Assembly: GCA_017881075.1 (NCBI GenBank)
Contig: JADGRH010000003.1
Coordinates: forward strand, 64,682 to 128,681
Source of the DNA: Minisyncoccota bacterium
GTDB lineage: Bacteria > Patescibacteriota > Minisyncoccia > Phycocordibacterales > CAJBRS01
DNA length: 64,000 nucleotides
Direction of reading: 5' to 3'
Shown: piece after piece, positions 1,584 through 17,661 of the stretch
Layout: every line of letters begins with the position of its first letter
Position numbering within the stretch: the stretch's first letter is position 1
Program-made: the position numbers and the translations under genes
The notes under the pieces: generated by a model
The model's input: only the letters and a program-made list of their open reading frames with translations
What the model was told of the DNA's origin: nothing
Databases searched by the model: none

Positions 1584-3242
1584 ATGACTCAAGCAGAAGC
1601 ACTGGATATCTTAAAGATGGGACACAATGTATTTATCACCGGCGCAGCTGGAAGTGGCAAAACTCACACTCTGCGTGCCTATATTGATTATTTGAACAAG
1701 AGCAATGCGAGCGTTGCCATTACCGCATCCACGGGAATTGCGGCTACGCACATTGGTGGTAGCACCATTCACTCATGGAGCGGCCTGGGAGTCCGCGATT
1801 CTCTTTCCGAGCAGGACTTAAGTGAAATGGAAGAGCGACAATATCTCTGGCGACGATATGATCAAGTAAGGATTTTAATAATTGATGAAGTTTCAATGCT
1901 CCATCATTTTCGATTTGATCTTTTGGATAAAATTTGCCGATTTTTCAAAAGAAACGATGCCCCCTTCGGGGGCATGCAAATAGTGCTTTGCGGTGACTTC
2001 TTCCAACTGCCGCCAGTCACCATAATGGGGGAGCCGGAGGCAAGCTTCATTCATAAATCAGATGTTTGGGAAGAGATGAATTTGAAGATCTGCTATCTCT
2101 CCGAACAGCATCGCCAAAATATTGAAGACGAATATTTTAAAATCCTAAATGAGATCCGCGGGAATGATGTCGGCACGGATACATACGAACTCCTACAATC
2201 CCGTCTTAACCAAGAATCCGAATCAAAAATTCCGCCGACTCGTCTCTACACTCACAACATTGATGTTGATGCCGTGAATAACCGCGAGCTCGGAAAGATT
2301 GCGGGGGAGGCAAAAATTTACGCCATGTCTTCCAAAGGAAGGGCCGCTATAGTGGAGACTTTGAAAAAGAGTTGTCTTTCACCGGAGAAACTTTCTCTTA
2401 AAATTGGAGCCAAAGTAATGTTCGTTAAAAATAATTTTGAGAAACATTATGTTAATGGAACATTGGGGATAGTTGTGGCTTATGATTCAGCCGGTTATCC
2501 TATTGTGGAAACTCTTTCTGGAAAGAGGATACTGGCCACACCGGAGAGCTGGATGATAGAAGAAGAGGGCAAGATTAAAGCCGAGATCAATCAAGTGCCG
2601 CTCCGGCTCGCCTGGGCTATTACTGTGCATAAAAGCCAAGGAATGAGCCTTGATGCGGCAGAAATGGACCTATCAAAATCTTTCATTAAAGGGATGGGAT
2701 ATGTGGCTCTTTCGCGAGTGCGTAGTTTAAAAGGCTTGAAGCTACTCGGTATCAATCAAATGGCTCTGCGAGTAGATGAAGGTGTTTTTGAATACGATCA
2801 AACTCTCCGATCACTTTCAAAACAAAGCCAAAGTGAGTTAAAGAAGATGACCGCAAGCGAAATGAAAAAAGAGCAGGGAGAATTTCTGGCGAAAGTTGCT
2901 GGCTCCAAAAAAATTAAGGAAGAAAAAATAGCCACTCATCACAAAACCAAAAATCTTTTGCTCCAGAAGCTCTCTTTGGAAGAAATGGCAGAGGCGCGTG
3001 GGATGACCACCGAGACTATTGTCAGTCATATTGAGAAATTACTAGAGGAAGATCCGTCGTTTGATGTTCAGTATCTTTTCAATGCTAATTTTACTGATGA
3101 GCGTTTTCAGAAAATTGAAAAAGCTTTTGAAAAATCTTTAGCCAAGAATGGCGACTATCGTTTGGCGCCGGTGCGAGGTCTGCTTGGGCCCGATTTTGAT
3201 TATTTGGAACTGCGCATAGCGAGGTTGTTTTTGGGAAAGTAG
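1584..3242 (+). CDS. PIF1/RecD-family SF1 DNA helicase
   Basis: Walker A GAAGSGKT, Walker B LIIDEVSM, CGDFFQLPPV, and AITVHKSQG near the C-terminus. C-terminal helical HTH-like tail as in bacterial Pif1-like helicases. Confidence 0.85.
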   Translation: MTQAEALDILKMGHNVFITGAAGSGKTHTLRAYIDYLNKSNASVAITASTGIAATHIGGSTIHSWSGLGVRDSLSEQDLSEMEERQYLWRRYDQVRILIIDEVSMLHHFRFDLLDKICRFFKRNDAPFGGMQIVLCGDFFQLPPVTIMGEPEASFIHKSDVWEEMNLKICYLSEQHRQNIEDEYFKILNEIRGNDVGTDTYELLQSRLNQESESKIPPTRLYTHNIDVDAVNNRELGKIAGEAKIYAMSSKGRAAIVETLKKSCLSPEKLSLKIGAKVMFVKNNFEKHYVNGTLGIVVAYDSAGYPIVETLSGKRILATPESWMIEEEGKIKAEINQVPLRLAWAITVHKSQGMSLDAAEMDLSKSFIKGMGYVALSRVRSLKGLKLLGINQMALRVDEGVFEYDQTLRSLSKQSQSELKKMTASEMKKEQGEFLAKVAGSKKIKEEKIATHHKTKNLLLQKLSLEEMAEARGMTTETIVSHIEKLLEEDPSFDVQYLFNANFTDERFQKIEKAFEKSLAKNGDYRLAPVRGLLGPDFDYLELRIARLFLGK

Positions 3243-4858: not shown

Positions 4859-6139
4859 ATGAGTATACGTTTCGTTATCTCAGTTATGTTGGTTGGCCTT
4901 TACATGGCCATATCAATCCTGTATCCAGTAGCCCAAGGCCCGATCGAAGGAAAGATCGCGGCCAGTATGGTCCAAGATAGTGATGCGTCTTATGCAGCGG
5001 CTCACGCCCTGCTCACGACGCATTCGCCGATAACCATTATCGGTTGGGCAGTGTTCATAGCATTGCTCGTCATCTGGGTGCCAGTTTTACGGCGCGCCCT
5101 CAAGCGCCCCACTAAAACGGCAGCGACATTTCTCGGGTGTATCGCCTTTTTGGCGACCATTCTCACCACGGGATGTGTGGGACCTTATAAGGTAGAGAAG
5201 TTCGAGACCATCGAATCAAACGAGACGGCCTTCGTCGTTCCCTTGGAGGGTGCGACGCTCGCCAATCAAGCGAAGTTCATGTCTATCGACTATCTCAATT
5301 CGCCTGAAGTGAAAGTGGCGACCAAGCGGATCACTATTCCGCAACGGCAACGCGACACAGGACGGGTGGCCGGTAATTACGAATGGATTGACACCGTTCG
5401 CGTCATCAAGGTAAACCGGGCGCCTATCACCAGACAGTGGGTGAAGGCCTCAACACAAGGCACTTCTAAATCCGACGAGGCCATCGAGGTGGAGTCTAAA
5501 GAGTCAATCGACTTCTACACCGGAGCGGTCTGCAGCGGGTTTATCGCTGAAGAGGATGCGGCAAGGTTCCTCTATTATTTCGCCGGGAAACCTTTAAGCG
5601 AAGTGATGGACGAGAACGTACGCGGGTATGTTCAAAACCTGATGTGGGTGGAGTTTGGTACGCGGGACTTGACCGCTGCCAAAGAGGCCAAGAAAGAGAT
5701 CATGGATGCGGTTTCCAAATCGACGAAGGAGTTCTACTCCAAGCAAGGGATAACGATCTCTTACGTCGGTGGAGCTGAAGGTCTGACCTACAAGGATCCA
5801 AAGATCCAAGAATCCATCAACTCGGCCTTCATCGCCGAGAATGACCGCAAAGTGGCGGATCAGGAGAATCAGGCCCAAACGATTAGGAATACCAAATTGG
5901 TTTCCATCGCTACAGCACAGCGTCAGGCGGCTGAAGAGTTCGCCAAAGCGCAGAATGCCATGATTGCCAAGACCCAGCTCGAGATCCAAATGAAGCAGGC
6001 AGACGCCATGCTGGAGATCGCGCATAACTCGCACGGCATCAGCATCCAACCGGGTGCGATCTTGTCTGAAGGGTCGCCCTTCCTGTTTGGCCTGGATAAG
6101 GTCACGGGAGCTCGGCCGCCGGTCACTGCAAATAAGTAA
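4859..6139 (+). CDS. membrane protein with SPFH/band-7-like domain
   Basis: Good SD (aaggag) upstream. N-terminal TM helices, a central beta-rich region, and a C-terminal Ala/Gln/Glu-rich helix (QRQAAEEFAKAQNAMIAKTQLEIQMKQ) typical of SPFH proteins. GC-rich relative to flanks. Confidence 0.55.
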   Translation: MSIRFVISVMLVGLYMAISILYPVAQGPIEGKIAASMVQDSDASYAAAHALLTTHSPITIIGWAVFIALLVIWVPVLRRALKRPTKTAATFLGCIAFLATILTTGCVGPYKVEKFETIESNETAFVVPLEGATLANQAKFMSIDYLNSPEVKVATKRITIPQRQRDTGRVAGNYEWIDTVRVIKVNRAPITRQWVKASTQGTSKSDEAIEVESKESIDFYTGAVCSGFIAEEDAARFLYYFAGKPLSEVMDENVRGYVQNLMWVEFGTRDLTAAKEAKKEIMDAVSKSTKEFYSKQGITISYVGGAEGLTYKDPKIQESINSAFIAENDRKVADQENQAQTIRNTKLVSIATAQRQAAEEFAKAQNAMIAKTQLEIQMKQADAMLEIAHNSHGISIQPGAILSEGSPFLFGLDKVTGARPPVTANK

Positions 6140-6168
6140 CGACCTTTAAAACGTAGAGAGAAATCTCG

Positions 6169-6210
6169 GCGCGTGGTCCGGTTGAGCAATCAACCCCCAC
6201 GCGCTTTTTT
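6169..6210 (+). terminator. intrinsic terminator after the SPFH-like gene
   Basis: Stem gcgcgtgg (6169-6176) / ccacgcgc (6197-6204) followed by tttttt. Confidence 0.7.
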
Positions 6211-6312
6211 AATTTAACTTTTCTTTATGGGAGATTCATCACCCATTTATATATTTAAGTAATAGCAGAAAGATTTGCAAGGATTTGGGTATTCCTGAAG
6301 AAGATTAAAATT

Positions 6313-6346
6313 AAAAAATCCGGCCGAAGCATTTGTCGGCCGGATT
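6313..6346 (-). terminator. conserved hairpin terminator, copy 1 of 3
   Basis: aaaaaatccggcc-N12-ggccggatt. 9-bp stem, 12-nt loop, U-run on the minus strand; 15 nt after the receiver gene stop. Confidence 0.8.
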
Positions 6347-6361
6347 ATCAAAACCATTCGC

Positions 6362-6733
6362 TTAGCTCACGGATGATTGTGTGAGCTGGAGATCAAGAAG
6401 TCGGATTACTGTGTCGGGCACGTCGTCCTTGCGCGATGCATGACTACATCCGGCCGACATCATCAGTTGTTGGACCTTAAAGCATCCCGCCGCTGTTACT
6501 ATCGGCATGGCAGACTTCTGGCGCAATTCGCGAATGAAAGGTTCAGTATTATAGGTATAGCCCGGAACACAGCCATCAACGACTACCAGATCAAAAGGAT
6601 CCGAGCGGTCCAGGATTTTCTGGGCACCCTCCAAGTCAAACGCTTGGTTGATAACAACCTCGTATCTGCAAAGTTTCTTCTCCCAGTCGAGCTGGTACTG
6701 CGGGTTATCCTCTACAAGTAAGATTTTTTTCAT
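6362..6733 (-). CDS. single-domain response-regulator receiver protein (CheY-like)
   Basis: MKKILLVEDN..., putative phospho-acceptor in FDLVVVDG, T in PIVTAAG, K in ASRKDD. No output domain. Confidence 0.75.
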   Translation of the reverse strand: MKKILLVEDNPQYQLDWEKKLCRYEVVINQAFDLEGAQKILDRSDPFDLVVVDGCVPGYTYNTEPFIRELRQKSAMPIVTAAGCFKVQQLMMSAGCSHASRKDDVPDTVIRLLDLQLTQSSVS

Positions 6734-6793
6734 AATTCTAAATCGGATACTACATTAAATGCCAAAAAAATCAAAATCAGGTAGTATTAACCC

Positions 6794-7705
6794 ATGGATC
6801 AATCTCAAAACTCCACTAGAGAATATTCTGCCATTAGCCCAACATCTCGCAGCTCATTTTGGATGAAAACTTTCACCGACATTCCTTACGTGCGGGAAAT
6901 ATACGACGAGCTGGAAAAAGGGAAGCAGAGTGGAGCGGAAAGCAAAATCAGGGATTACGGAATCAATCATGTTGGTCTCTCAAGTATTGCTCCATATTTT
7001 GAGGCGAGATACTTAATCATTAATAGATTATTGAAAGAAGTTGGAGCGACACAGATTATTGAATTAGCTTCCGGCCTCACTCCTCGGGGTCTTGAGCTTA
7101 CCAAAGATCCAAATATCACTTTCATCGAATTAGACCTCCCTGATGTAATCGAAGAGAAAAAGAAAATAGTGGAAAATATTATAAGAGAGCATAAAATCGG
7201 CGATCGTAACAATTTGTATCTGGAAGCAGGAAGCGCCCTGGAAGAAGCGGATATCATGAAAGCCGCCTCTCATTTTGATGAAAAGAAAGAGATCGCTATT
7301 ATTAATGAAGGATTACTTCGCTATCTGAAAAGAGACGAACAGGCAAAAATGGCTCAGGCGATCTTACCCGTGCTTCAAAAATTCGGGGGAGTATGGATCA
7401 CCCCTGATATTGGCATCAGAGATAAAATGCTGGCAGGACAAGCGAAATTGTCGCCGATATTCATAGACAGAACTAAAAAGTTGGAAAAAATGACGGGCGC
7501 TGGAAATTTTTCCGACAACCTTTTCGCCGATGCTGCAGAAGCCAAGGCAATCTATGAAAAACTAGGATTTGAGATAGAGATGCATACTTACTCTGAAGTA
7601 TCCGATCAACTCGTTTCACCCACTAAACTCGGTCAACCAAAAGAGATTACAGACTCACTTATGGAATGGAGCAAGGTCTTTGTGATGCACCCAAAGACCA
7701 AATAA
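6794..7705 (+). CDS. class I SAM-dependent methyltransferase (LCMT/TcmP-like)
   Basis: Motif I-like IIELASGLTPRG and acidic post-I FIELDLPDV; length and layout match leucine-carboxyl/O-methyltransferase-like proteins. Confidence 0.65.
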   Translation: MDQSQNSTREYSAISPTSRSSFWMKTFTDIPYVREIYDELEKGKQSGAESKIRDYGINHVGLSSIAPYFEARYLIINRLLKEVGATQIIELASGLTPRGLELTKDPNITFIELDLPDVIEEKKKIVENIIREHKIGDRNNLYLEAGSALEEADIMKAASHFDEKKEIAIINEGLLRYLKRDEQAKMAQAILPVLQKFGGVWITPDIGIRDKMLAGQAKLSPIFIDRTKKLEKMTGAGNFSDNLFADAAEAKAIYEKLGFEIEMHTYSEVSDQLVSPTKLGQPKEITDSLMEWSKVFVMHPKTK

Positions 7706-7737
7706 AAAATCCGGCCAGAGAATTCACGGGCCGGATT
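7704..7737 (-). terminator. conserved hairpin terminator, copy 2 of 3
   Basis: aaaaaatccggcc-N12-ggccggatt. The stem overlaps the TAA stop of 7736..8089; also sits just after the convergent methyltransferase gene. Confidence 0.8.
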
Positions 7738-8089
7738 ACGAAAAACTTCTGAGTCCTAACAGCATGATGATGGTATTTACCAAATCGTCAGGATGAGCCT
7801 CATGGGTGCATCGAAAATAATTCAACATAATCTGTCGGATACCGGGACTTTTGTCCACAACCACAATGGGTCCATTGCAATGAGGAGGAAGACTCTTCAG
7901 AAGTGCTCCGGTGTTGAACGTTTTTGACCCAACACAAGTTTCGACGGCTACAAGGTCATAACGATCAGATTCCTCAATCGCGAATCTAACGTCGTAGGCG
8001 TAGCTTGCGCTGACGTCATATTCCTCCAACCTCCTTTGCCACTCGGTCGCCAGGTCATTGTCATTAGTCACAATTAAGATATTCTTCAT
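7736..8089 (-). CDS. receiver-like single-domain protein, degenerate (Glu at phospho-acceptor position)
   Basis: Paralog of 6362..6733 and 9503..9856. YDLVAVETCVG replaces DLVVVDG; conserved C-T-H motif near the C-terminus. Confidence 0.65.
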   Translation of the reverse strand: MKNILIVTNDNDLATEWQRRLEEYDVSASYAYDVRFAIEESDRYDLVAVETCVGSKTFNTGALLKSLPPHCNGPIVVVDKSPGIRQIMLNYFRCTHEAHPDDLVNTIIMLLGLRSFS

Positions 8090-8219
8090 TAGTCTTTCCT
8101 CATATTACACAGCCTTCCTTGGAAATCAAGGTAGAAATGGAAGTTATACCGAAAATAAAAAAGCGGCCACCCCTTTCGAAGTGCCGCTTGTTTGAACGCG
8201 ATGCGCGCTAAGATACCGC

Positions 8220-9350
8220 TTACTCTCTTAGCATCAGCGAGACCGTGTCGGGGAACGTTGTTGTGTAATCCCCGAAGATCTGCATGCCGAAACTTTTCGG
8301 CGTCACTTTGTCCCAAGTGATCTTCTCGTTGGCACCGGCGCCGGAATATGATCCGACACTCATTGGGGATGTGTGGTACTCGACGAAACCTCCCCATGGT
8401 CTGATGAGCTTGTCCTGTAGACGATGTGATTCGTCTGCGAGGAAGTCATGCTTGAGGTGGGGGACAACGCAAATGGCGAAGTCTCCAGCAATGCCGCCAC
8501 CAAGCTGGACGAAAGCCAGCGGAGTTTTGCGGGTCACGTCCATGTAGAATTCCGCGAGCGCATGCATGTACGAAATCCCCGGAAGGACCACGTTCATGTC
8601 GATCGGCGCCTCGATCTTGTAATTTTTCAAGAACCAATGGTCGCCCTTGTAGCACGCCTGAGCAAAAATATTGCCCATCGTAGAATCTTCGAATCCAGGA
8701 ACGAAGAGCGGAATGTCGAGTTTTGCAGCTTTGCGAAGCCAACATTCTTCCGCATTGGCCGTCGGATCTTTTCTGATCAGATCGTGCTTGAACAGGTGAT
8801 AGAAATACTGATGCCAGAGTTTCCGCTCCTTATTTACTCCGGCGATCCTCCATTGCTTCATGAGCTTGGGCAGGATGACTCTGACCGATTCGTCTTCCGG
8901 CAGGATCGTGTCTGTGATTCGGCGGAAACGAAGGCGGCGAAGCTCCTCTTCCTGTTTGGGCGTCAAGGATTGATAGTTGGGAATGTAGACATAATACTGA
9001 TTTGCTGAGAATCGGTAGGCGCTTTCTTCCATGTTCGCGCCGGTAACTGACATTCCGGCGATGTATCCGGCGTCCATCAGTCTGGTGATGGGTACACCGA
9101 GCTGGAATGATGATCCGGCTCCGGCCATTGATAAGAATATCTTGCCGCCCTCTTCGCAGAAATCTCGAAGCCAAAGGCCGGCATCGACAGTTCTTCCTCC
9201 GTTGCAATGGCGCTTGTTCTGGACCAGTGAATTTGAGACGGGGCTGTCTGCGCTGGGGGTATAACGTCGTTCTCCCACAGTGATCATCTTGCGAAGCCCA
9301 GGACTGAGCTGAGCCATTTTTTGTTTAAGGGACATGATTTGATTTGACAT
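8220..9350 (-). CDS. deoxyhypusine synthase-like family protein
   Basis: Layout and motifs parallel DHS: SMAGAGSS...VTGANMEE, QLGGGIAGDF (cf. ILGGGVVKHH), GSYSGAGANEKITWDKV (cf. GSDSGARPDEAVSWGKI). GC-rich: 31 G+C in 8221-8280. Confidence 0.65.
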   Translation of the reverse strand: MSNQIMSLKQKMAQLSPGLRKMITVGERRYTPSADSPVSNSLVQNKRHCNGGRTVDAGLWLRDFCEEGGKIFLSMAGAGSSFQLGVPITRLMDAGYIAGMSVTGANMEESAYRFSANQYYVYIPNYQSLTPKQEEELRRLRFRRITDTILPEDESVRVILPKLMKQWRIAGVNKERKLWHQYFYHLFKHDLIRKDPTANAEECWLRKAAKLDIPLFVPGFEDSTMGNIFAQACYKGDHWFLKNYKIEAPIDMNVVLPGISYMHALAEFYMDVTRKTPLAFVQLGGGIAGDFAICVVPHLKHDFLADESHRLQDKLIRPWGGFVEYHTSPMSVGSYSGAGANEKITWDKVTPKSFGMQIFGDYTTTFPDTVSLMLRE

Positions 9351-9470: not shown

Positions 9471-9504
9471 AAAAAATCCGGCCTGTGAATCGGTCGGCCG
9501 GATT
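9471..9504 (-). terminator. conserved hairpin terminator, copy 3 of 3
   Basis: aaaaaatccggcc-N12-ggccggatt; the stem overlaps the TAA stop of 9503..9856. Confidence 0.8.
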
Positions 9505-9856
9505 AAGAATAGCGCTTCAATTCAAGAAGAGTGACGATGAGAGACACCAACAAGTCCGGATGCGCGCCATGTGTGCATCCAAAATCTCTAATCATTGCCT
9601 GACGGATCTCCGAACTCTCGTCCACGATCACTATTGGTCCATTAGAATGGGCAGGGAGACTCTTGAGGAGTGGGCCCGTATTGAATGTCTTGGAGCCAAC
9701 GCAGGTCTCTACCGCCACGAGGTCATAACGGTCTTGATTGGAAACCGCATAACTTACGTCATAGGCGTAGCTTGCGTTGACTGCGTATTCATCCAGTCTA
9801 TTCCGCCAATCGGACAGATGGTCATTGTTAGTAGACACAATTAGGATAAACTTCAT
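9503..9856 (-). CDS. receiver-like single-domain protein, degenerate (Glu at phospho-acceptor position)
   Basis: Close paralog of 7736..8089 (shared YDLVAVETCVGSKTFNTG.LLKSLP, GCTH.AHPD). Confidence 0.65.
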   Translation of the reverse strand: MKFILIVSTNNDHLSDWRNRLDEYAVNASYAYDVSYAVSNQDRYDLVAVETCVGSKTFNTGPLLKSLPAHSNGPIVIVDESSEIRQAMIRDFGCTHGAHPDLLVSLIVTLLELKRYS

Positions 9857-10390: not shown

Positions 10391-10750
10391 ATGATTTTTA
10401 ATATGACTAAGATTGAGGATCTGATTACAAGAGTGACTGCATTTAGAGATGATAGAGACTGGAAACAGTTCCATAATCCCAAAGATAATGCTATCGGATT
10501 AGTTCTGGAAGCCTCGGAGGTTTTAGAGCTATTCCAGTGGAAAAATAAAGAAGAAATTGACAAGTATATAAAATCACATAGCGAAAATATTTCTGACGAA
10601 CTAGCGGATGTTATGTATTGGGTTTTATTAATGTCACATGACTTGAATATTGATATCGGAAAGGCTATAGAAAAGAAACTTAAGAAAACAGAAGAAAAAT
10701 ACCCTATAGAAAAATCCAAAGGTAATCATAAGAAGTACACAGAACTTTAA
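10391..10750 (+). CDS. MazG-like nucleotide pyrophosphohydrolase
   Basis: All-alpha MazG/dCTPase-like pattern: FRDDRDWKQFHNPKD, EASEVLELFQW (ExxE), ELADVMYWVL (ExxD), KKLKKTEEKYP. Confidence 0.8.
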   Translation: MIFNMTKIEDLITRVTAFRDDRDWKQFHNPKDNAIGLVLEASEVLELFQWKNKEEIDKYIKSHSENISDELADVMYWVLLMSHDLNIDIGKAIEKKLKKTEEKYPIEKSKGNHKKYTEL

Positions 10751-10754
10751 TCTT

Positions 10755-12608
10755 ATGATTCTATATAAAAATAATCTAAAGGATTTTAAAATTCACGTTG
10801 ATACTAATCAGATCGGGGATTTAATCGAGAAATCTTTTAGAGAAAAATTAGGGCACAAAGTTGCTCCAAATGAAAAAAGGTCATGGACTAATTCTATGTC
10901 GTTTATGGAGAAAATAGTCAGAAGGGCTGATCTTTCGGATACTTGCGGAGTTATGTTGGAATATATTATTCCAAACACTTCTAACAGAATCGACTTTTTA
11001 ATTTCCGGGGAAGACGAGAAAGGGAACAAGAATTTTATAATTATTGAATTGAAACAATGGGAAACATCAGAATCTACTGATAGAGATGGTGTAGTAAGGA
11101 CTTTTGTGGGAGGAGGAGTACGCGAAACTACGCACCCATCTTACCAGGCCCATTCCTATAAATTGTTTTTAAGTGACTACAATGAAAATATTGATTCTGG
11201 CATTCTTTCACCATACGCTTGCGCGTATCTGCATAATTATAAAGAGCGGAGTCCGGAGCCTCTAAAGGCTCAAATATATGAATCTGTTATTAAGGTAGCG
11301 CCAGTTTATTTTAAGGACGATTATGAAAAATTGGAGCAGTTTTTGCATAATTATGTTAGGTTCGGAAAAGGAGAAGAAATCTTGTATCAAATTGAAGCCG
11401 GCAGAATAAAACCTAGCAAAAAACTTATTGAGCATATTCAAAAAATGTATGAAGGAAACCAGGAATTTATATTACTGGATGAGCAAAAGGTGGCATATGA
11501 GACAGCTCGATCTGTAGCAAAGAAAGTTAAAGAAAAATCTGTCGTAATTATAAAAGGTGGTCCAGGGACGGGTAAATCTGTAATCTCAATGAATTTATTG
11601 GGAAGCCTATTAAAGGATGAACTTAATGTAAACTTTATTGCCCCTAACTCTGCCTTTAGAGAAGTAATGATTCATAGATTAGCAAGGAAGGAGACTAAAT
11701 TAAGGTTAAAAAACTTGTTTAAAGGCTCTGCTGGTTTTGTAAATGCCAAGAAAGACACATTTGATACTTTAATAGTGGATGAAGCACATAGATTAAAGAA
11801 AAAAGGTGCTTATCAATACAAGGGGATAAATCAGATAGAAGATATCGTTAATTCTGCTAGAACGTCTATCTTTTTTGTCGATGATAATCAGATGATTCGT
11901 CCAGACGATATAGGTTCAGTTCAGGAGATTAAAAGAGTGGCTGATAAAAATAAGGCAAGAATTTATGAAATAGAATTAGTCGCCCAATTTAGGTGTGCTG
12001 GGGCAGAAGGTTATCTTAATTGGCTCGACAATACATTACAGATTAAAGAGACAGCGAATTTTGATGGATGGGAGCAAAAAGATTTTGAGTTTAAGATTTT
12101 TAATGATCCTAACGACTTAAGGAAAATGATAAAAGAAAAGCATGATAAAGGATTTAATGCTCGAATTCTTGCTGGCTATGCTTGGAAGTGGACAAGTGTA
12201 GGGGAGGGCAATAAAAGTGGAGAAGTTGAAGATGTCTTAATCCCCGAATTCGATTTCAAAATGCCGTGGAATGCTCGACAAATTGGAACAACTTGGGCGG
12301 TTGATCCAAAAGGTATTGATCAGGCAGGATGCATTCATACTTCACAAGGTCTGGAATTTGACTACGTTGGAGTTTTGGTAGGCAATGATTTACGTTTTGA
12401 TTCCAAAAAACTTGACTACCATGCTCACTGGGTATCCTACAAAGATACGACGGGGAAAAAAGGGCTGAAAAATAACCCGGAAGAATTAACTAAATTAGTA
12501 AAAAATATCTACAAGGTTCTTATGAGCAGGGGTATGAAGGGATGCTATGTTTATTTTACTGACAAAGAAATGGAGAGATATTTTAAATCACGCTTAGGTA
12601 TCAAATAA
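10755..12608 (+). CDS. DUF2075-type ATPase/helicase-like protein with N-terminal PD-(D/E)xK-like nuclease motif
   Basis: Starts 4 nt after the MazG stop. N-terminus IDFLISG...FIIIELKQW (D...ExK). Walker A GGPGTGKSV, Walker B LIVDEAHRL. C-terminus HTSQGLEFDYVGVLVG and VLMSRGMKGCYVY as in DUF2075 proteins. Confidence 0.8.
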   Translation: MILYKNNLKDFKIHVDTNQIGDLIEKSFREKLGHKVAPNEKRSWTNSMSFMEKIVRRADLSDTCGVMLEYIIPNTSNRIDFLISGEDEKGNKNFIIIELKQWETSESTDRDGVVRTFVGGGVRETTHPSYQAHSYKLFLSDYNENIDSGILSPYACAYLHNYKERSPEPLKAQIYESVIKVAPVYFKDDYEKLEQFLHNYVRFGKGEEILYQIEAGRIKPSKKLIEHIQKMYEGNQEFILLDEQKVAYETARSVAKKVKEKSVVIIKGGPGTGKSVISMNLLGSLLKDELNVNFIAPNSAFREVMIHRLARKETKLRLKNLFKGSAGFVNAKKDTFDTLIVDEAHRLKKKGAYQYKGINQIEDIVNSARTSIFFVDDNQMIRPDDIGSVQEIKRVADKNKARIYEIELVAQFRCAGAEGYLNWLDNTLQIKETANFDGWEQKDFEFKIFNDPNDLRKMIKEKHDKGFNARILAGYAWKWTSVGEGNKSGEVEDVLIPEFDFKMPWNARQIGTTWAVDPKGIDQAGCIHTSQGLEFDYVGVLVGNDLRFDSKKLDYHAHWVSYKDTTGKKGLKNNPEELTKLVKNIYKVLMSRGMKGCYVYFTDKEMERYFKSRLGIK

Positions 12609-12658
12609 TTTATCTTTATTTTAGCGTTGCTTCATGATACACATGGTAGGTTGTCGTC

Positions 12659-12820
12659 ATGAAGAAACAAAAGATCAAAGATAGTGACAACGCCTATTTA
12701 ATAAGCAGTAACAACTATGAAGACGATAATTGCCCCATCTGCAATCTAATGAGGCGATGTGAAATAGAGGAAAGAGAACCCACCTCACAAGAGATTAAAG
12801 AGGTGATGAAATTTAAATGA
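12659..12820 (+). CDS. possible 53-aa small protein
   Basis: ATG..TGA ORF below the track cutoff (MKKQKIKDSDNAYLISSNNYEDDNCPICNLMRRCEIEE...). No SD and no homology recognised. Confidence 0.2.
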   Translation: MKKQKIKDSDNAYLISSNNYEDDNCPICNLMRRCEIEEREPTSQEIKEVMKFK

Positions 12821-12907
12821 TCCTATTTATGCACGGCCTTTATCTAAAAAATGGCCAATGGACCAAAGAGAGAGCAGTAAAAATATCTGCGTATCATTTC
12901 ACTTATG

Positions 12908-12935
12908 GATAATCCGGCCTGCTCTGCCACGCTTG
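12908..12935. repeat. left inverted repeat of candidate invertible segment
   Basis: gataatccggcctgctctgccAcgcttg; its reverse complement occurs at 13317-13344 with 1 mismatch (core 21 bp perfect). Confidence 0.85.
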
Positions 12936-13286
12936 TATTGCCCTCTACTTTTTTTATGGCATACTTAAAAAAGAAATCCATGACAGACCTAATCTGATCT
13001 TTAAATATAAACCCTATTTTGCAGGTATGAAGAGACAATAAAGCATCGATTAAAAAATAATATGACCAATAAATATAGCAATAATCTTGTTACATAGAAT
13101 TTCAAATTTACTTAAAATATGGCTCTAATCAAGAACTAATTAAGATATGCACAGCTTATCCACTGGTAAGCTATTTACAAAACTGCTAGATTATGATACA
13201 TTAAGAGAGGAATATTTCTTTTTCCCCTCTTGCTGATTATAATAAGCTTTTCTTTCATAATAGGAAAAATAATATTAGCTAAATAC

Positions 13287-13315
13287 TTGACTCCAAAAAT
13301 TTTGGAGAGTATTAT
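13287..13315 (+). promoter_or_regulatory. sigma70-type promoter facing the 13360 operon, inside the IR-bounded segment
   Basis: TTGACT (13287-13292), 17-nt spacer, TATTAT (13310-13315). The spacer contains the palindrome ccaaaaattttgg. The -10 ends 1 nt before the right IR. Confidence 0.55.
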
Positions 13316-13316
13316 G

Positions 13317-13344
13317 CAAGCGCGGCAGAGCAGGCCGGATTATC
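13317..13344. repeat. right inverted repeat of candidate invertible segment
   Basis: caagcgCggcagagcaggccggattatc, the reverse complement of 12908-12935. Confidence 0.85.
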
Positions 13345-13359
13345 AATAAATTAAATTAT

Positions 13360-13761
13360 ATGACCAACGACAAATCTTTTTTGGAGGATCTCTATACTGA
13401 CAGTGGGGGATTCGACCGCGAACGGGTAGTGCGGGTGCTCCAAACCATACTAACCATTCAGCGGGGCGACCATAAAGTCTTCTTTAAAAAAGAGGCAACA
13501 CTAGAAGCTGCGGACAAAATTTTGGCTTATGCGTTAGTAAAAAAGCTTTTAAAGACAGAGGGGGTAACTGAAACGAGTAGTGTCTCGGGAAAGGAACTGA
13601 AGAAGCAAACGGGTGTAAAGTCCGGGACGGTCGATTTTACAATTAAAAAACTTAAAGAGGAAGATGGTCTGCTTGTTGGCAGCGGTAGCAATTATGAAAT
13701 ACCAGCACACAAAGTTGAAGACATCTTAGAGCGTCTTGAAAAATGCGCTTCCAAAAAATAA
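13360..13761 (+). CDS. hypothetical protein, C-terminal winged-helix-like region (operon gene 1)
   Basis: 133-aa ORF. SGKELKKQTGVKSGTVDFTIKKLKEEDGLLVGSGSNYEI reads as helix-turn-helix plus wing (inference). Confidence 0.6.
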   Translation: MTNDKSFLEDLYTDSGGFDRERVVRVLQTILTIQRGDHKVFFKKEATLEAADKILAYALVKKLLKTEGVTETSSVSGKELKKQTGVKSGTVDFTIKKLKEEDGLLVGSGSNYEIPAHKVEDILERLEKCASKK

Positions 13762-13765
13762 ATCT

Positions 13766-14206
13766 ATGGAAAATAACATAAAAAAAATACTCGGAGAAAT
13801 ACTCACATCCATAAAGAGCCTTGAAAAACGAGTTACTCTCATAGAAAGCAAGACACCGAGCATGAGTACACCATCACATGATCTTCCCATTGCCTCGAAG
13901 AAGATGTCGATAAAGGAGTTCCTAATTGATCGCTCTCCAGCAAATGGAGTACAAACAACTCTCGCGGTCGCATATTATCTAGAAAAATATGACAAGATCT
14001 CGCCATTTAATGCCAGTGACATAGAGAAAGCATTTCGTTCCGCTAAGGAACCAGTGCCCAACAATATCAATGATAAAGCAAATATGTGTATTAAAAATGG
14101 TCATTTAATGGAAGGAGAGGATAAGAAAGACAATATGAAAGCGTGGGTAGTCACTCGAAGCGGAGAACAATACGTTCAGGAAAAATTTGATCGTTATAGT
14201 CATTAA
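13766..14206 (+). CDS. hypothetical protein (operon gene 2)
   Basis: ORF-track start 13736 overlaps gene 1. ATG at 13766 (MENNIKKILGE...) gives a 4-nt gap. N-terminal coiled coil; C-terminal ...CIKNGHLMEG...KAWVVTRSGEQYV is wHTH-like. Confidence 0.6.
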   Translation: MENNIKKILGEILTSIKSLEKRVTLIESKTPSMSTPSHDLPIASKKMSIKEFLIDRSPANGVQTTLAVAYYLEKYDKISPFNASDIEKAFRSAKEPVPNNINDKANMCIKNGHLMEGEDKKDNMKAWVVTRSGEQYVQEKFDRYSH

Positions 14207-14235
14207 AAATAAAATTATTCACTAATATAAATATT

Positions 14236-14784
14236 ATGTCTGAAGCAGAAATAGTAGAAATCGTAGGGAAAATTGTTACTGCACTCACTCCTCTTTCTCA
14301 TGAGGAACGACAGAGGGCGGTGCAAGCGTCTTTAAATGTATTTGGTGAATCCATGCTCAGGTCTACACAAAGAAAAGACGAACTCAATGAAATTCCCTCT
14401 GCATTTAGTGAACGCGCGCGGATATGGATTAAACAGAACGAGCTTTCTTTGGAAAATTTAGAACAAATTTTTCATATTACTGATACTGGAGCAGAATTGA
14501 TTATTCAAGAAGTGCCGGGAGGAAAGGATAACAAACCCAGGGTGCTAAATGTGTATGTTCTTTCTGGCGTAGCTTCCCTACTCACCTCAGAAAATTCTAA
14601 TTTCGACGACAAAGTTGCAAGAACCATATGTGAATCATTTGGATGTTACGATCCAACAAATCACACTAAATACCTAAAGAAAAGTAAATTCTTTACAGGA
14701 TCCAAAAAAACAGGATGGACCTTGACTGCTCAGGGTTTAAAACATGCAGCCATGTTAGTTAGAGAACTGAGTAAGCCCCAATAG
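14236..14784 (+). CDS. hypothetical protein (operon gene 3)
   Basis: 182-aa ORF. C-terminus ...KFFTGSKKTGWTLTAQGLKHAAMLVREL is wHTH-wing-like; no known family recognised. Confidence 0.6.
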   Translation: MSEAEIVEIVGKIVTALTPLSHEERQRAVQASLNVFGESMLRSTQRKDELNEIPSAFSERARIWIKQNELSLENLEQIFHITDTGAELIIQEVPGGKDNKPRVLNVYVLSGVASLLTSENSNFDDKVARTICESFGCYDPTNHTKYLKKSKFFTGSKKTGWTLTAQGLKHAAMLVRELSKPQ

Positions 14785-14786
14785 AT

Positions 14787-15527
14787 ATGATTTTCACATT
14801 TAAAAATATTCCGATCAATCTTTCTGAAAAATTGGTTGAGGAATACTTGGAAATAAAGAAACGCCATTCAATGAGTGATTGGGGCCCAAGTCAATTAAAA
14901 GGCGGTAGATTTGCAGAAGCTATGTTACGCATTTTCCAACATTTGCTCGGTATTTCTATTACACCATTTGGGACCAACATTCCAAACAAAGACCGTATTT
15001 TAAATGCTGTAAAAATTCACCCGTCATTGGATGACCACATTCGTCAAAAAGTAGCACCTCTTATAAGACTTCTTCTAGATTTTCGTAATAATCGAGATGT
15101 AGCACACCTCGGAGGATTCAATGCAAATAGCATGGATACTCTTTTTGTGATGACAACAGCGACATGGATTTTGTGTGAACTGATCCGTGTTTATGGAGGG
15201 CAAAGTATGGACACCGCTCAAAAACTAGTAGACTCACTTTCCGTTAAAGAGTATCCAGTGCTAATGGAGTTCGAAGGAGAGCTCTTTATTACTCGACACA
15301 ATCTCAACGCAGAACAAGAAGTGCTAATATTTTTGTATAAAAATCGTAAAGCAGGCTACAATTTTTTGTCTTCAAAGACAAAGGACAGCAATTCTTCACG
15401 TTTTAAGAAAATTTTAGAGAAAATGGTTGCGGTAAAGTTCATTGGCAGCAAGGCAAATCAGTACTTTATCATGCCTCGTGGAATCGAGCGTGTAGAAAAA
15501 GAACGCTTATTGATCTATTCAAACTAG
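14787..15527 (+). CDS. hypothetical protein with HEPN-like Rx6H motif and C-terminal wHTH-like region (operon gene 4)
   Basis: Starts 2 nt after the gene 3 stop. LLLDFRNNRDVAHLGG (R100..H107, nt 15084-15107) lies in an all-helical N-terminal half and resembles the HEPN RNxxxxAH motif. C-terminus KFIGSKANQYFIMPRGIERV. Confidence 0.6.
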   Translation: MIFTFKNIPINLSEKLVEEYLEIKKRHSMSDWGPSQLKGGRFAEAMLRIFQHLLGISITPFGTNIPNKDRILNAVKIHPSLDDHIRQKVAPLIRLLLDFRNNRDVAHLGGFNANSMDTLFVMTTATWILCELIRVYGGQSMDTAQKLVDSLSVKEYPVLMEFEGELFITRHNLNAEQEVLIFLYKNRKAGYNFLSSKTKDSNSSRFKKILEKMVAVKFIGSKANQYFIMPRGIERVEKERLLIYSN

Positions 15528-15612
15528 GAATCAACAAGGCCAAGGCTGTTTTTTATATCTATTTCATCTTTTCTTCATAAATTTTTCATATTTAAAATGT
15601 TATGATGTGTGA

Positions 15613-16083
15613 ATGCAAAAGGACTTTACCTTTCAATTAATAAAGGGAAAAATCAGCGAAACTATATTTGATCAGATGTTTCGAGAAGCAGGGGAGTTTA
15701 CAGTTATCCCCTTTGGTTATGAAGCTTTAGTCCCGGAAATTGCTCAGCTTGCTCGTTCATTAGAACGCAAGGAAGTTCTGGACTCAATTAGGAATAGTCC
15801 TGATTTTGCACTGGTCTCTCATAGTCAGAAAAAGGTATTTCTAGTTGAAGTGAAATATAGGTCGCATTTACACGAAGATGACGTGTTAAATATTGCTCAG
15901 ATGGTTCACGACAGATGGAAACTAGCGTGGTTGTTCATTGCTACTCCGGAAGGATTCTATTTTGATAGTTGCTCGGATGTCTTAAATACTAAGACCATTA
16001 ATAAACTTAAACCAACATGGATCAATGCCGAACTCCAGGAAAAGTATTTAGCAGTAATGAATAAGTTTCAAGTTAACCATTAA
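15613..16083 (+). CDS. PD-(D/E)xK restriction-endonuclease-fold protein (putative)
   Basis: SPDFALVSHSQKKVFLVEVKYRS matches D-x(n)-E-x-K core spacing. Extended -10 (tgttatgat) upstream. Confidence 0.55.
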   Translation: MQKDFTFQLIKGKISETIFDQMFREAGEFTVIPFGYEALVPEIAQLARSLERKEVLDSIRNSPDFALVSHSQKKVFLVEVKYRSHLHEDDVLNIAQMVHDRWKLAWLFIATPEGFYFDSCSDVLNTKTINKLKPTWINAELQEKYLAVMNKFQVNH

Positions 16084-16102
16084 GTAGAGGTAAGAATTTC
16101 TT

Positions 16103-16861
16103 ATGTTCTCAGATCCAATCATTGAAAATTTAAAGTATTACGTTTATATACTTGTTGATCCGAGCAATAATAAGCCTTTTTATATTGGAAAAGGAATAGG
16201 AAATAGGGTTTTTTCCCATCTAAAAAATGAAATTGAAGACGAGTCTAAGATTTCATTAAAACAAGCGCTTATTAAAAATATTCAGGATCAAGGGAAAGAT
16301 GTTGAGATATACATAGTACGACACGGTTTAAATGAGAAGGAGGCATTTGAGATTGAGGCGACACTTATTGATTTTATCCAACTTAGAAATCTTACTAATG
16401 AAATAGTAGAGCACGACTATAAGGAAGAAATACCAGCTAAAAATCTGGCTAATATTGTTTTAGGACATCATGCGGGAGAAAGGGGGCTTATGACGCTAAA
16501 TGAAATACTCCAGTTGTATGGTGCAGAAGAGGCTAATATTACCGACCCAGTAATAATAATTAATATAAATCGAAAATATAAACGGGGCATGAGTCCGAAT
16601 GAAATATATGAAGCAACTCGAGCATCTTGGGTCATAAGCAAAGATAGGTCACAGAAAGCTAAATTTGTTCTCGCATCATTTCGTGGAATAGTAAAAGAAG
16701 TTTTCTATGTTAATCATTGGCAACAATCTAAGAATTCAAACCGCTTAGAATTTGAAGGAGGTGTTGCTCAGTTAGAGATTGCTGAAAAATATAGAAACAA
16801 AGCTATAACTAATTATTTGAAGACGGGGGCACAAAACCCAATTAGATACGTAAATTGTTAG
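16103..16861 (+). CDS. GIY-YIG nuclease-domain protein with uncharacterised C-terminal domain
   Basis: N-terminus YYVYILVD...KPFYIGKGIGNRVFSHL...EIEATLI fits GIY..YIG..R..H..E. Confidence 0.7.
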   Translation: MFSDPIIENLKYYVYILVDPSNNKPFYIGKGIGNRVFSHLKNEIEDESKISLKQALIKNIQDQGKDVEIYIVRHGLNEKEAFEIEATLIDFIQLRNLTNEIVEHDYKEEIPAKNLANIVLGHHAGERGLMTLNEILQLYGAEEANITDPVIIININRKYKRGMSPNEIYEATRASWVISKDRSQKAKFVLASFRGIVKEVFYVNHWQQSKNSNRLEFEGGVAQLEIAEKYRNKAITNYLKTGAQNPIRYVNC

Positions 16862-16963
16862 ATTAAATTGTACTATTCTCATGCCAGATGAATTGGAAAA
16901 TCAGGAATTAAAGGGGTCAGAAGTCATTTTTATATTAAATTTTATCTTTCTGTTGTATTAATC

Positions 16964-17107
16964 ATGGACTCCGATGAAATCTTAGAATTAGTTAAAGATG
17001 GCGTGATAGAGCCGGATCAGGTGGAAGATTTTCAGAATTTGGATGAGGAGATCCAGCAAATGGTGGCGGATGGGGATTTGGATGCAGATGAGGCGTTGAG
17101 TTTATAA
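16964..17107 (+). CDS. possible 47-aa strongly acidic small protein
   Basis: ATG..TAA ORF below the track cutoff (MDSDEILELVKDGVIEPDQVEDFQNLDEEIQQMVADGDLDADEALSL). Ends 50 nt before the NYN gene. Confidence 0.3.
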   Translation: MDSDEILELVKDGVIEPDQVEDFQNLDEEIQQMVADGDLDADEALSL

Positions 17108-17157
17108 ATTTATCTTTTCTTGACGGGGAATTCATCTGCAAGTTCTATTCTATATGA

Positions 17158-17661
17158 GTGGAAAATGAGTTTAAGAATCTTGCTTTTATAGATGGACAGA
17201 ATCTGTATATGGGTACGTCAAAGCGAGAGATCGATCCGTGGGAAATTAACCTTACCCGATTCTGTGTATATCTGGATGAAAAATACAATGTCGGTAATGC
17301 CTATTATTTTTTAGGATATGTGCAGGAGGCAAATCAAGAACTCTACGAAGAAATACAAAAGGCTGGTTTCTTGCTAGTATTTCGAGAACATAATCCAGCG
17401 ATGATTGGGAAGAAAAAAGGAAATGTGGATTCAGATATTGTCTTTCATGTCATGAAAAATCTATACAAGAAAGAGAATTTTAAAAAGATAATCCTTGTTT
17501 CTGGAGATGGTGACTATAAATTACTGGTTGATTTTTTGATAGCAGAGAACCGATTCGAGAAGATATTGTTTCCGAATAGAGAATTTGCGTCTTCTTTGTA
17601 CAAGAAACTCGGTTCGGAATATTTTGATTACTTAGAAAATATAAAGACATATATCACATAA
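17158..17661 (+). CDS. NYN-domain (LabA/PIN-like) ribonuclease
   Basis: AFIDGQNLY, GNVDSDIVFHVM and ILVSGDGDY are the NYN acidic motifs. GTG start as in the ORF track. Confidence 0.8.
   Translation: MENEFKNLAFIDGQNLYMGTSKREIDPWEINLTRFCVYLDEKYNVGNAYYFLGYVQEANQELYEEIQKAGFLLVFREHNPAMIGKKKGNVDSDIVFHVMKNLYKKENFKKIILVSGDGDYKLLVDFLIAENRFEKILFPNREFASSLYKKLGSEYFDYLENIKTYIT

Follow-up and report, generated by a model that had tools for sequence, protein, structure and literature searches.

A MazG-like pyrophosphatase gene paired with a PD-(D/E)xK-DUF2075 nuclease-helicase gene: a candidate two-gene anti-phage module in Patescibacteriota and other phyla

Introduction

Why would the gene for a small nucleotide-hydrolyzing enzyme be joined to the gene for a large nuclease-helicase? 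This question is raised by a locus of a Minisyncoccota bacterium (Patescibacteriota; assembly GCA_017881075.1) that lies in a 64,000-nucleotide (nt) stretch of contig JADGRH010000003.1 (positions 64,682 to 128,681, forward strand), which we call the window and whose own numbering we use below. The contig stems from a metagenome (Logan run SRR10489828). In the locus, a MazG-like protein of 119 amino acids (aa) and a 617-aa protein are encoded one directly after the other. The original prediction for this locus, made from sequence, was that the two form a defense module. We find that most relatives, in several phyla, keep the two genes side by side, usually in apparent translational coupling and with either gene first. 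We propose that they constitute one operon-level two-gene module, directed against phages or other mobile DNA and carried on horizontally moving islands, a reading that we hold to be about evenly poised between right and wrong. In kind, the pair is probably an undescribed two-gene variant of the known Nhi-like/DUF2075 anti-phage proteins.

Results

Both genes encode predicted active enzymes

The features of the gene pair are as follows.

10391..10750, + strand: MazG-like gene, an all-alpha nucleoside triphosphate pyrophosphatase of the DCTPP1/RS21-C6-like kind, 119 aa (open reading frame (ORF) list, Pfam PF12643, PDB match to DCTPP1)
10508..10528, + strand: metal-binding motif E40-x-x-E43-x-x-E46 (EASEVLE), invariant in 34 paired MazG proteins and aligned with DCTPP1 E63/E66
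10598..10609, + strand: second metal-binding motif E70-x-x-D73 (ELAD), invariant in the 34 pairs and aligned with DCTPP1 E95/D98
10751..10754, + strand: 4-nt spacer TCTT between the two genes (sequence; spacing in related pairs)
10755..12608, + strand: nuclease-helicase gene, 617 aa, Nhi-like organization (PF09848; PADLOC matches to PDC-S41, AbiO and Nhi; full-length AlphaFold2 model)
10755..11450, + strand: predicted N-terminal PD-(D/E)xK nuclease domain, aa 1-232
10992..11054, + strand: nuclease catalytic residues D80 ... E98-L-K100, invariant in the 34 pairs
11535..12563, + strand: DUF2075/superfamily 1B (SF1B) helicase core, aa 261-603 (PF09848, Foldseek, invariant motifs)

The MazG-like protein scores above the gathering threshold of PF12643 (E = 4.7e-18, 65.7 bits, cut-off 27), and its residues 8-119 match DCTPP1 over the whole length (PDB 6sqw, E = 4.8e-17; 2a3q likewise, at ~5e-17). 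With human and mouse DCTPP1 (RS21-C6) it shares the all-alpha MazG fold, the metal ligands and two tryptophans aligned with W47/W73; it differs in being prokaryotic, only 119 aa long and encoded in an operon with a nuclease. Across the related pairs, E40, E43, E46, E70, D73, W24 and H28 are invariant (34/34), and W50 is kept in 32/34. The roles of the corresponding metal-ligand and base-stacking residues are those given for DCTPP1 in the RS21-C6 structure papers. Because the metal ligands and W24/H28 do not vary, the protein is predicted to be an active enzyme rather than a decayed scaffold, and it looks like a catalytically intact deoxynucleoside triphosphate (dNTP) pyrophosphatase of the DCTPP1 type.

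The 617-aa protein carries the PD-(D/E)xK-like, P-loop and DEAH motifs on which the original prediction was built: RIDFLISG...IIIELKQW, which holds D80 and E98-L-K100, GGPGTGKS (aa 268-275) and DEAH (aa 342-345). In the nuclease part, E69, D80, E98 and K100, together with H127, Q131 and Y135 (QxxxY-like), are invariant in the 34 pairs. The helicase part (aa 261-603) matches PF09848 (SLFN-g3_helicase, formerly DUF2075) along its full profile, 1-354, with E = 4.5e-92 and 309.5 bits (cut-off 24); the Walker A lysine K274, D342/E343, Q379 and R413 are invariant in the same pairs, and R592 is found in 33/34, the exception being an alignment gap. The full-length model has a mean predicted local distance difference test score (pLDDT) of 90.1, and Foldseek places it with RecD, RecD2, Dda, Dna2, SLFN11 and Upf1 at E = 1e-10 to 1e-7. 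Modeled on their own, the N-terminal ~230 residues also reach a pLDDT of 90.1, and the structure prediction gives a restriction-endonuclease fold, bearing out the nuclease reading of this domain; a Schlafen-type N-terminal nuclease was rejected in favor of PD-(D/E)xK. The 617-aa protein is thus predicted to join two intact enzymes, a PD-(D/E)xK nuclease and an SF1B (DUF2075) helicase, with the corresponding activities.

The N-terminal domain occurs in 1657 clusters at 50% identity. Among the 150 of these that were listed, it stands at or near the protein N-terminus in all, and the full-length proteins are mostly ~600-650 aa or ~740-815 aa long. Searches of the 617-aa sequence against PDB returned no match, and NCBIfam returned helicase matches only, all of them sub-threshold.

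Some homologues are extended at the C-terminus. A Peptidase_S24 (LexA/UmuD-like) domain is found there in 17 of the 120 closest homologues (~14%; e.g., P0009, P0021 and P0063), and also on some GIY-YIG-DUF2075 proteins; the loci named for this observation are L005, L017 and L176. In P0063, the catalytic serine (GHSMEP) and a lysine (LKKY) are in place. This fusion hints that the nuclease-helicase family may be wired to RecA or single-stranded DNA signals, which would fit the sensing of replication intermediates. A Bacillota clade of homologues (~780 aa) bears another, unannotated C-terminal extension.

The two genes are paired across distant lineages

The MazG-like gene ends 4 nt before the 617-aa gene, as originally described, and this spacing is likely to reflect translational coupling; most of 33 related pairs have spacings between -4 and +5 nt. 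We assessed adjacency in a census of 29 independent loci that were found through the 617-aa protein alone. A MazG-like gene is directly adjacent at 23 of them, usually with a 4-nt overlap and sometimes in reversed order. At all 12 assessable genome loci it lies immediately upstream of the nuclease-helicase gene; these loci come from Parcubacteria, Saccharibacteria, Elusimicrobia, Flavobacteriales, Saprospirales-like bacteria, Balneolales, Clostridiales and Bacillota, and their helicase proteins range from 75% down to 39% identity. Exact-protein look-ups gave the pair in five of seven cases (Petrocella atlantisensis, an Altiarchaeota metagenome-assembled genome and three others), Salinibacter ruber and one more being without it. 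Three of four viral loci have the pair, one in reversed order, as do three of six plasmids, all three from cultured organisms (Priestia aryabhattai, Halalkalicoccus jeotgali B3 and Marivirga); on a Halomonas plasmid, MazG lies ~700 nt from the nuclease-helicase gene, and the Methanosphaera and Hymenobacter plasmids carry no MazG. The range of the pair thus takes in Patescibacteria, Elusimicrobia, Bacteroidota, Bacillota, Halobacteria and Altiarchaeota. The pairing exceeds chance, and the co-occurrence on which the original prediction depended holds across phyla.

Variations on this layout were also seen. The loci in which the DUF2075 protein comes first and is followed at once by the MazG-like gene (L181, L145 and L146) are divergent, at ~27% identity. 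A RadC-like JAB gene (224 aa, PF04002, E = 1.5e-42) stands between MazG and the nuclease-helicase in four metagenome loci, among them L020 (5004-6688). The Hymenobacter canadensis plasmid NZ_CP114769.1 (L190) carries two DUF2075 genes in tandem without MazG (5001-8987); immediately before them come genes for a BPTD_3080-family restriction endonuclease, a DNA methyltransferase and a DUF4747 protein. Matches on Bacillus plasmids were excluded from the nuclease-helicase clade, as the helicase part alone matched.

The MazG clade is shared among several nuclease types

Does the MazG-like gene keep to a single partner? In a reverse test, we took the 80 nearest MazG-like metagenome loci, 70 of which were assessable. 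A DUF2075-family gene lies next to MazG in 37 of the 70, encoding the PD-(D/E)xK nuclease-helicase in 26 and a GIY-YIG-DUF2075 protein in 11. Overall, ~70% of the metagenome copies of this MazG clade and 79% of the viral ones have a nuclease gene beside them. The viral set is led by a different combination, commoner there than MazG with DUF2075: a gene for a protein of ~325-370 aa, here termed reader-HNH, follows MazG directly in 54 of the 75 viral contigs, mostly prophages, that could be assessed, and at 7 metagenome loci. It starts within ~13 nt of MazG in L095-L137 and other viral contigs (e.g., L105, 4879-6189). The C-terminus of this protein matches the HNH domain of VcaM4I (6yex, E = 9.7e-9); the N-terminal match is to the McrB of Thermococcus (TgMcrB), in its YTH-like reader for modified bases (6p0f, E = 5.6e-4). 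VcaM4I is a restriction enzyme dependent on 5-methylcytosine or 5-hydroxymethylcytosine (5mC/5hmC) that restricts T4gt (PMC7897488).

Further partners are rarer. At three loci (L042, L050 and L069), MazG is accompanied by a ~365-aa protein with a weak EVE-like N-terminus (E = 0.24-0.4) and a C-terminal D...ExK motif with an Hjc-like signal (E = 0.04); the family label EVE-like/Hjc-like is tentative. A Vsr-like endonuclease is encoded downstream of MazG at two metagenome loci (L043: Vsr model, 2e-28), and one viral contig matches the L043 protein; on those short contigs, no C5-methyltransferase gene is present beside the Vsr-like partners. On the Priestia aryabhattai plasmid NZ_CP083270.1 (L187, 3548-6866), a DUF3578-HNH gene overlaps the MazG-like gene by 4 nt and the nuclease-helicase gene follows; the HNH part is similar to McrA of E. 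coli (5-methylcytosine-specific restriction enzyme A; 6ghc, E = 1.3e-5). The Priestia pair (strain NM1_A2) has the protein accessions WP_223546822.1 and WP_223546820.1. The MazG clade is therefore found beside five nuclease designs, namely PD-(D/E)xK-DUF2075, GIY-YIG-DUF2075, YTH/EVE-HNH, McrA-like HNH and Vsr-like, and a single MazG cluster at 50% identity (128 sequences) contains every partner type.

A mirror-tree comparison of MazG with its partner gave a weak and inconsistent signal (Pearson 0.24, Mantel p ~0.0015, Spearman 0.05), and we dropped tight co-evolution of the two as an argument. Since the MazG and partner trees correlate poorly, the MazG module seems to be exchanged among partners.

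The pair lies among mobile and defense genes

If the pair were part of the core genome, its neighbors should recur. Instead, the flanking genes differ at every paired locus and are rich in defense, toxin-antitoxin and mobile-element genes, which speaks against a conserved core context and supports the link to defense that had been drawn from the window's surroundings. One set of neighbors includes Ietos IetA (4e-76), PD-Lambda-5_B (2e-99), type II methyltransferases, PDC-S05, PDC-M26A, AbiEii, DUF2357 and integrases; another includes AbiJ, HEPN/MNT, HicAB, a KAP NTPase, Dam with an ABC ATPase, KilA-N and insertion sequence elements. On the Priestia plasmid, the neighbors are a restriction endonuclease, MutT, a type I restriction-modification system and an ABC-three-component gene. 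As a qualitative control, the window's ORFs outside the island gave only 12 PADLOC families, with weak matches. The window's nuclease-helicase shares 61% identity with an Elusimicrobia protein and 54% with the Priestia plasmid protein, and such high identity across phyla indicates horizontal transfer.

In the window itself, the pair makes up the first genes, on the same strand, of an AT-rich block with the following features.

10391..17661, strand not assigned: AT-rich island with the gene pair and further nuclease and defense genes (composition, PADLOC/Pfam matches, housekeeping flanks)
15613-16083, + strand: 156-aa protein with a weak TnsA-like endonuclease match (E = 0.0012, below cut-off)
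16103-16861, + strand: 252-aa GIY-YIG protein, a homologue of the single-gene defense PD-T4-3 (PADLOC E = 1e-53; Pfam LEM-3_GIY-YIG, 1.2e-15)
17158-17661, + strand: 167-aa protein with an NYN ribonuclease domain (E = 2e-13)

This 7.3-kb block has a GC content of 0.358, against 0.443 to its left and 0.433 to its right, and is inserted between housekeeping genes; outside it, the window encodes ribonucleotide reductase, tRNA synthetases, FtsZ and elongation factors. The picture of an AT-rich block with nucleases was thus accurate, with the PD-T4-3 homologue lying 3.5 kb downstream of the pair. Between the two, four successive co-directional ORFs (133, 156, 182 and 246 aa; 13360-15527, + strand) have no match in Pfam, PADLOC or NCBIfam and may be another island cargo or system. 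Three paralogous ORFs of 117-123 aa (6362-6733, 7736-8089 and 9503-9856, all - strand) with similar sequences (MKxILIV..ND...) lie shortly before the island, interleaved with an LCM-type methyltransferase gene and a deoxyhypusine-synthase-like gene; they have no precomputed Pfam match in the window (L001) and may be receiver-like. Also upstream are a 552-aa PIF1-family helicase with an HTH_40 domain (1584-3239, + strand), which is the source of the RecD-like PADLOC matches in the control set, and, next to it, a TrmB-type regulator. Promoter and terminator scans did not rise above the level of shuffled sequence.

Relation to known systems

The closest relatives in organization are single proteins. 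Nhi of S. epidermidis (SERP2475) is an anti-phage protein with an N-terminal nuclease and a DUF2075 helicase (10.1101/776245), a 'Nhi-like' defense protein of the same organization is also anti-phage (Millman et al. 2022, 10.1101/2022.05.11.491447), and PF09848 has long been in use as an Abi/defense marker (PMC10121019). The 617-aa protein shares with these the union of an N-terminal PD-(D/E)xK-type nuclease and a DUF2075/SF1 helicase in one polypeptide, as well as the defense-island setting. However, the PADLOC Nhi model matches the helicase part only (E = 1.7e-15, aa 236-500, profile 179-409 of 470), so that homology to SERP2475 does not extend to the whole length: the nuclease domain has no detectable sequence match to the Nhi model, and the C-terminal glyoxalase-like domain is lacking. 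Moreover, Nhi and Nhi-like are single-gene systems, whereas the window clade usually has a coupled MazG-like gene. In PADLOC, AbiO likewise matches the helicase part alone, and the best match is PDC-S41, a single-gene candidate (E = 7.6e-21, 72 bits, in two stretches). The better stretch pairs aa 3-315 with profile positions 5-291 of 657 and covers the N-terminal domain, and the overall organization is shared; we would place the 617-aa protein in a sister clade of PDC-S41 rather than as a clear member, and PDC-S41, unlike the window pair, has a one-gene definition. For MazG, PADLOC contains no model. The original prediction recognized no named system for the pair; our literature search, of incomplete coverage, also found no paper linking MazG to DUF2075, Nhi-like, reader-HNH/EVE or type IV restriction proteins, but the Nhi/Nhi-like organization and the PDC-S41 match had been missed.

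More distant likenesses were also considered. EVE-HNH enzymes (VcaM4I, TspA15I) are DNA-targeting defenses whose kin are the commonest partners of the MazG clade; the window's partner differs in being a PD-(D/E)xK nuclease with a helicase and without a reader domain, and in the literature searched, VcaM4I-type enzymes are not described with a MazG partner. For the same want of a reader, a type IV (modification-dependent) restriction enzyme by definition was ruled out for the 617-aa protein; such domains are confined to the remaining partners of the MazG clade. Schlafen group III proteins (SLFN11/5/13), which have antiviral and replication-stress roles, share the homologous C-terminal PF09848 helicase (Foldseek 7zep, E = 3.9e-9), but the Schlafen tRNA-nuclease core is replaced by the PD-(D/E)xK nuclease, which sets the window protein apart from that group. 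Dna2/RecB-family nuclease-helicases share RecB-like nuclease motifs and an SF1B helicase (Foldseek Dna2, E = 9e-9); the 617-aa protein is much smaller and lacks the Fe-S cysteine cluster, having a single conserved cysteine, and its clade is mobile and patchy rather than part of core repair.

Discussion

How might such a two-gene module work? By analogy with what is reported for Nhi, the nuclease-helicase would be the effector, loading on foreign or replicating DNA and degrading it. The contribution of the MazG-like enzyme would then be catalytic, made by acting on the dNTP pool, and would not depend on a structural role or on partner-specific contacts. DCTPP1 prefers 5-modified deoxycytidine triphosphate (dCTP). 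Because of this preference, and because the MazG clade is also coupled to the reader-HNH kin of 5mC/5hmC-dependent enzymes, the substrates would most likely be dCTP-type nucleotides with base modifications, such as 5-methyl- or 5-hydroxymethyl-dCTP. By hydrolyzing these, the enzyme could deprive phages of the modified precursors from which they make modified DNA and bring their replication forks to a halt; in addition, host DNA could be kept free of such nucleotides and thereby be spared by the partner nuclease. A broader reading, which we offer tentatively and consider possible but not favored, is that the MazG clade is a portable 'dNTP-pool guard' that has been attached repeatedly to at least five DNA-nuclease designs. 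If true, the guard would represent a general, hitherto undescribed principle, the coupling of modified-DNA-precursor hydrolysis to DNA-targeting immunity. It could avert autoimmunity caused by modified bases that enter DNA in error, or disarm phages with hypermodified genomes, or both.

The roles of the two genes could also be divided differently. The original prediction favored nucleotide depletion, and this stands as one possible role for MazG, although the other partners of the MazG clade point to modified-cytosine nucleotides. In its full form, this view makes MazG an effector in its own right: during infection it would use up dCTP or other canonical dNTPs, and the nuclease-helicase would destroy the phage DNA. 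The enzyme is predicted to be catalytically intact and is homologous to a dCTPase, rare PUA-HAD systems have MazG-like domains in place of Calcineurin-CE, an effector that depletes dNTPs (10.64898/2026.01.15.699771), and MazG is listed as a predicted, unvalidated defense domain (PMC13092281). Yet a 119-aa enzyme without a sensor or regulatory domain would deplete canonical dNTPs constitutively and so harm the host, and control by the partner through allostery is disfavored both by the weak mirror-tree signal and by the swapping of MazG among five nuclease types; we consider such depletion unlikely. A toxin-antitoxin-like arrangement, in which the upstream MazG holds a toxic nuclease in check, either through direct binding or through removal of an activating nucleotide, until phage interference frees the nuclease, would suit the layout of a small upstream gene overlapping a larger nuclease gene. 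Toxicity is on record for the expression of one Nhi homologue (10.1101/776245) and for the isolated HNH domain of VcaM4I, which could not be expressed (PMC7897488). A pure binding antitoxin would, however, have no need of the full catalytic site that is invariant in MazG, and the weak co-evolution, the service of one MazG clade to unrelated nuclease folds, the occasional reversal of gene order and the nuclease-helicases without MazG all leave this arrangement decidedly improbable.

Nor need the pair act in immunity, or as a pair. It could be a DNA repair or replication-maintenance cassette of mobile elements, with a Dna2/AddAB-like nuclease-helicase and a house-cleaning dNTPase: MazG enzymes are classical house-cleaning enzymes, the nuclease has RecB-like motifs (D...ExK, QxxxY-like), the SF1B matches include Dna2 and RecD, and the S24 domain with its serine and lysine, present on ~14% of close homologues, suggests a tie to RecA or DNA damage. 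We give this little credence, since the distribution is patchy and clearly horizontal, the neighbors are defense, toxin-antitoxin and restriction-modification genes rather than repair operons, and anti-phage activity has been shown for PF09848 proteins of the same organization. The remaining alternative is that MazG merely sits beside a single-gene, Nhi-like defense. Nhi and Nhi-like do work as single proteins, and some relatives of the nuclease-helicase do without an adjacent MazG; but the start and stop codons overlap, adjacency persists down to helicase-protein identities of 27-39% and in reversed order, and other nucleases repeatedly have a member of this MazG clade as their coupled partner, all of which makes mere hitch-hiking a poor bet.

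Several points weigh against our preferred reading, that of a two-gene immune module. The adjacent MazG is missing in 5 of the 29 relatives (Salinibacter L174, L183 and L182, Methanosphaera L188 and Hymenobacter L190), so the nuclease-helicase can exist alone. Conversely, about one quarter of the nearest MazG-like genes have no nuclease neighbor, and some of these lie in housekeeping contexts (TGT, MraW). Neither the Pfam, PADLOC and NCBIfam searches nor the fold revealed a modified-base reader (SRA, EVE, YTH, McrB-N or DUF3427) in the 617-aa protein, so its link to modified DNA is by association only. The preference of MazG for modified dCTP is extrapolated from a eukaryotic DCTPP1 that is ~35% identical, and MazG-type enzymes are often promiscuous. 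The comparison of defense neighbors is qualitative, with a control of 50 ORFs from one genome, and the immune function of the two genes is itself predicted from sequence and context.

So far, Nhi-type defenses and modification-dependent restriction enzymes have counted as single-gene systems. Should such nucleases have a dedicated dNTP pyrophosphatase as their functional partner, it would add a pre-replicative layer, acting on the nucleotide pool, to DNA-targeting immunity, and would explain how cells tolerate nucleases that recognize modified or replicating DNA. Enzymes of the DCTPP1 type, which protect the genome and epigenome in animals, would gain a matching part in the immunity of prokaryotes. 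Software for defense annotation would have to apply a rule covering both genes, and a context would become available for hundreds of plasmid and prophage genes now labeled 'nucleotide pyrophosphohydrolase'. With carriers in culture, including the plasmids of Priestia aryabhattai and Halalkalicoccus jeotgali B3 and the chromosome of Petrocella atlantisensis, the pair is directly testable.

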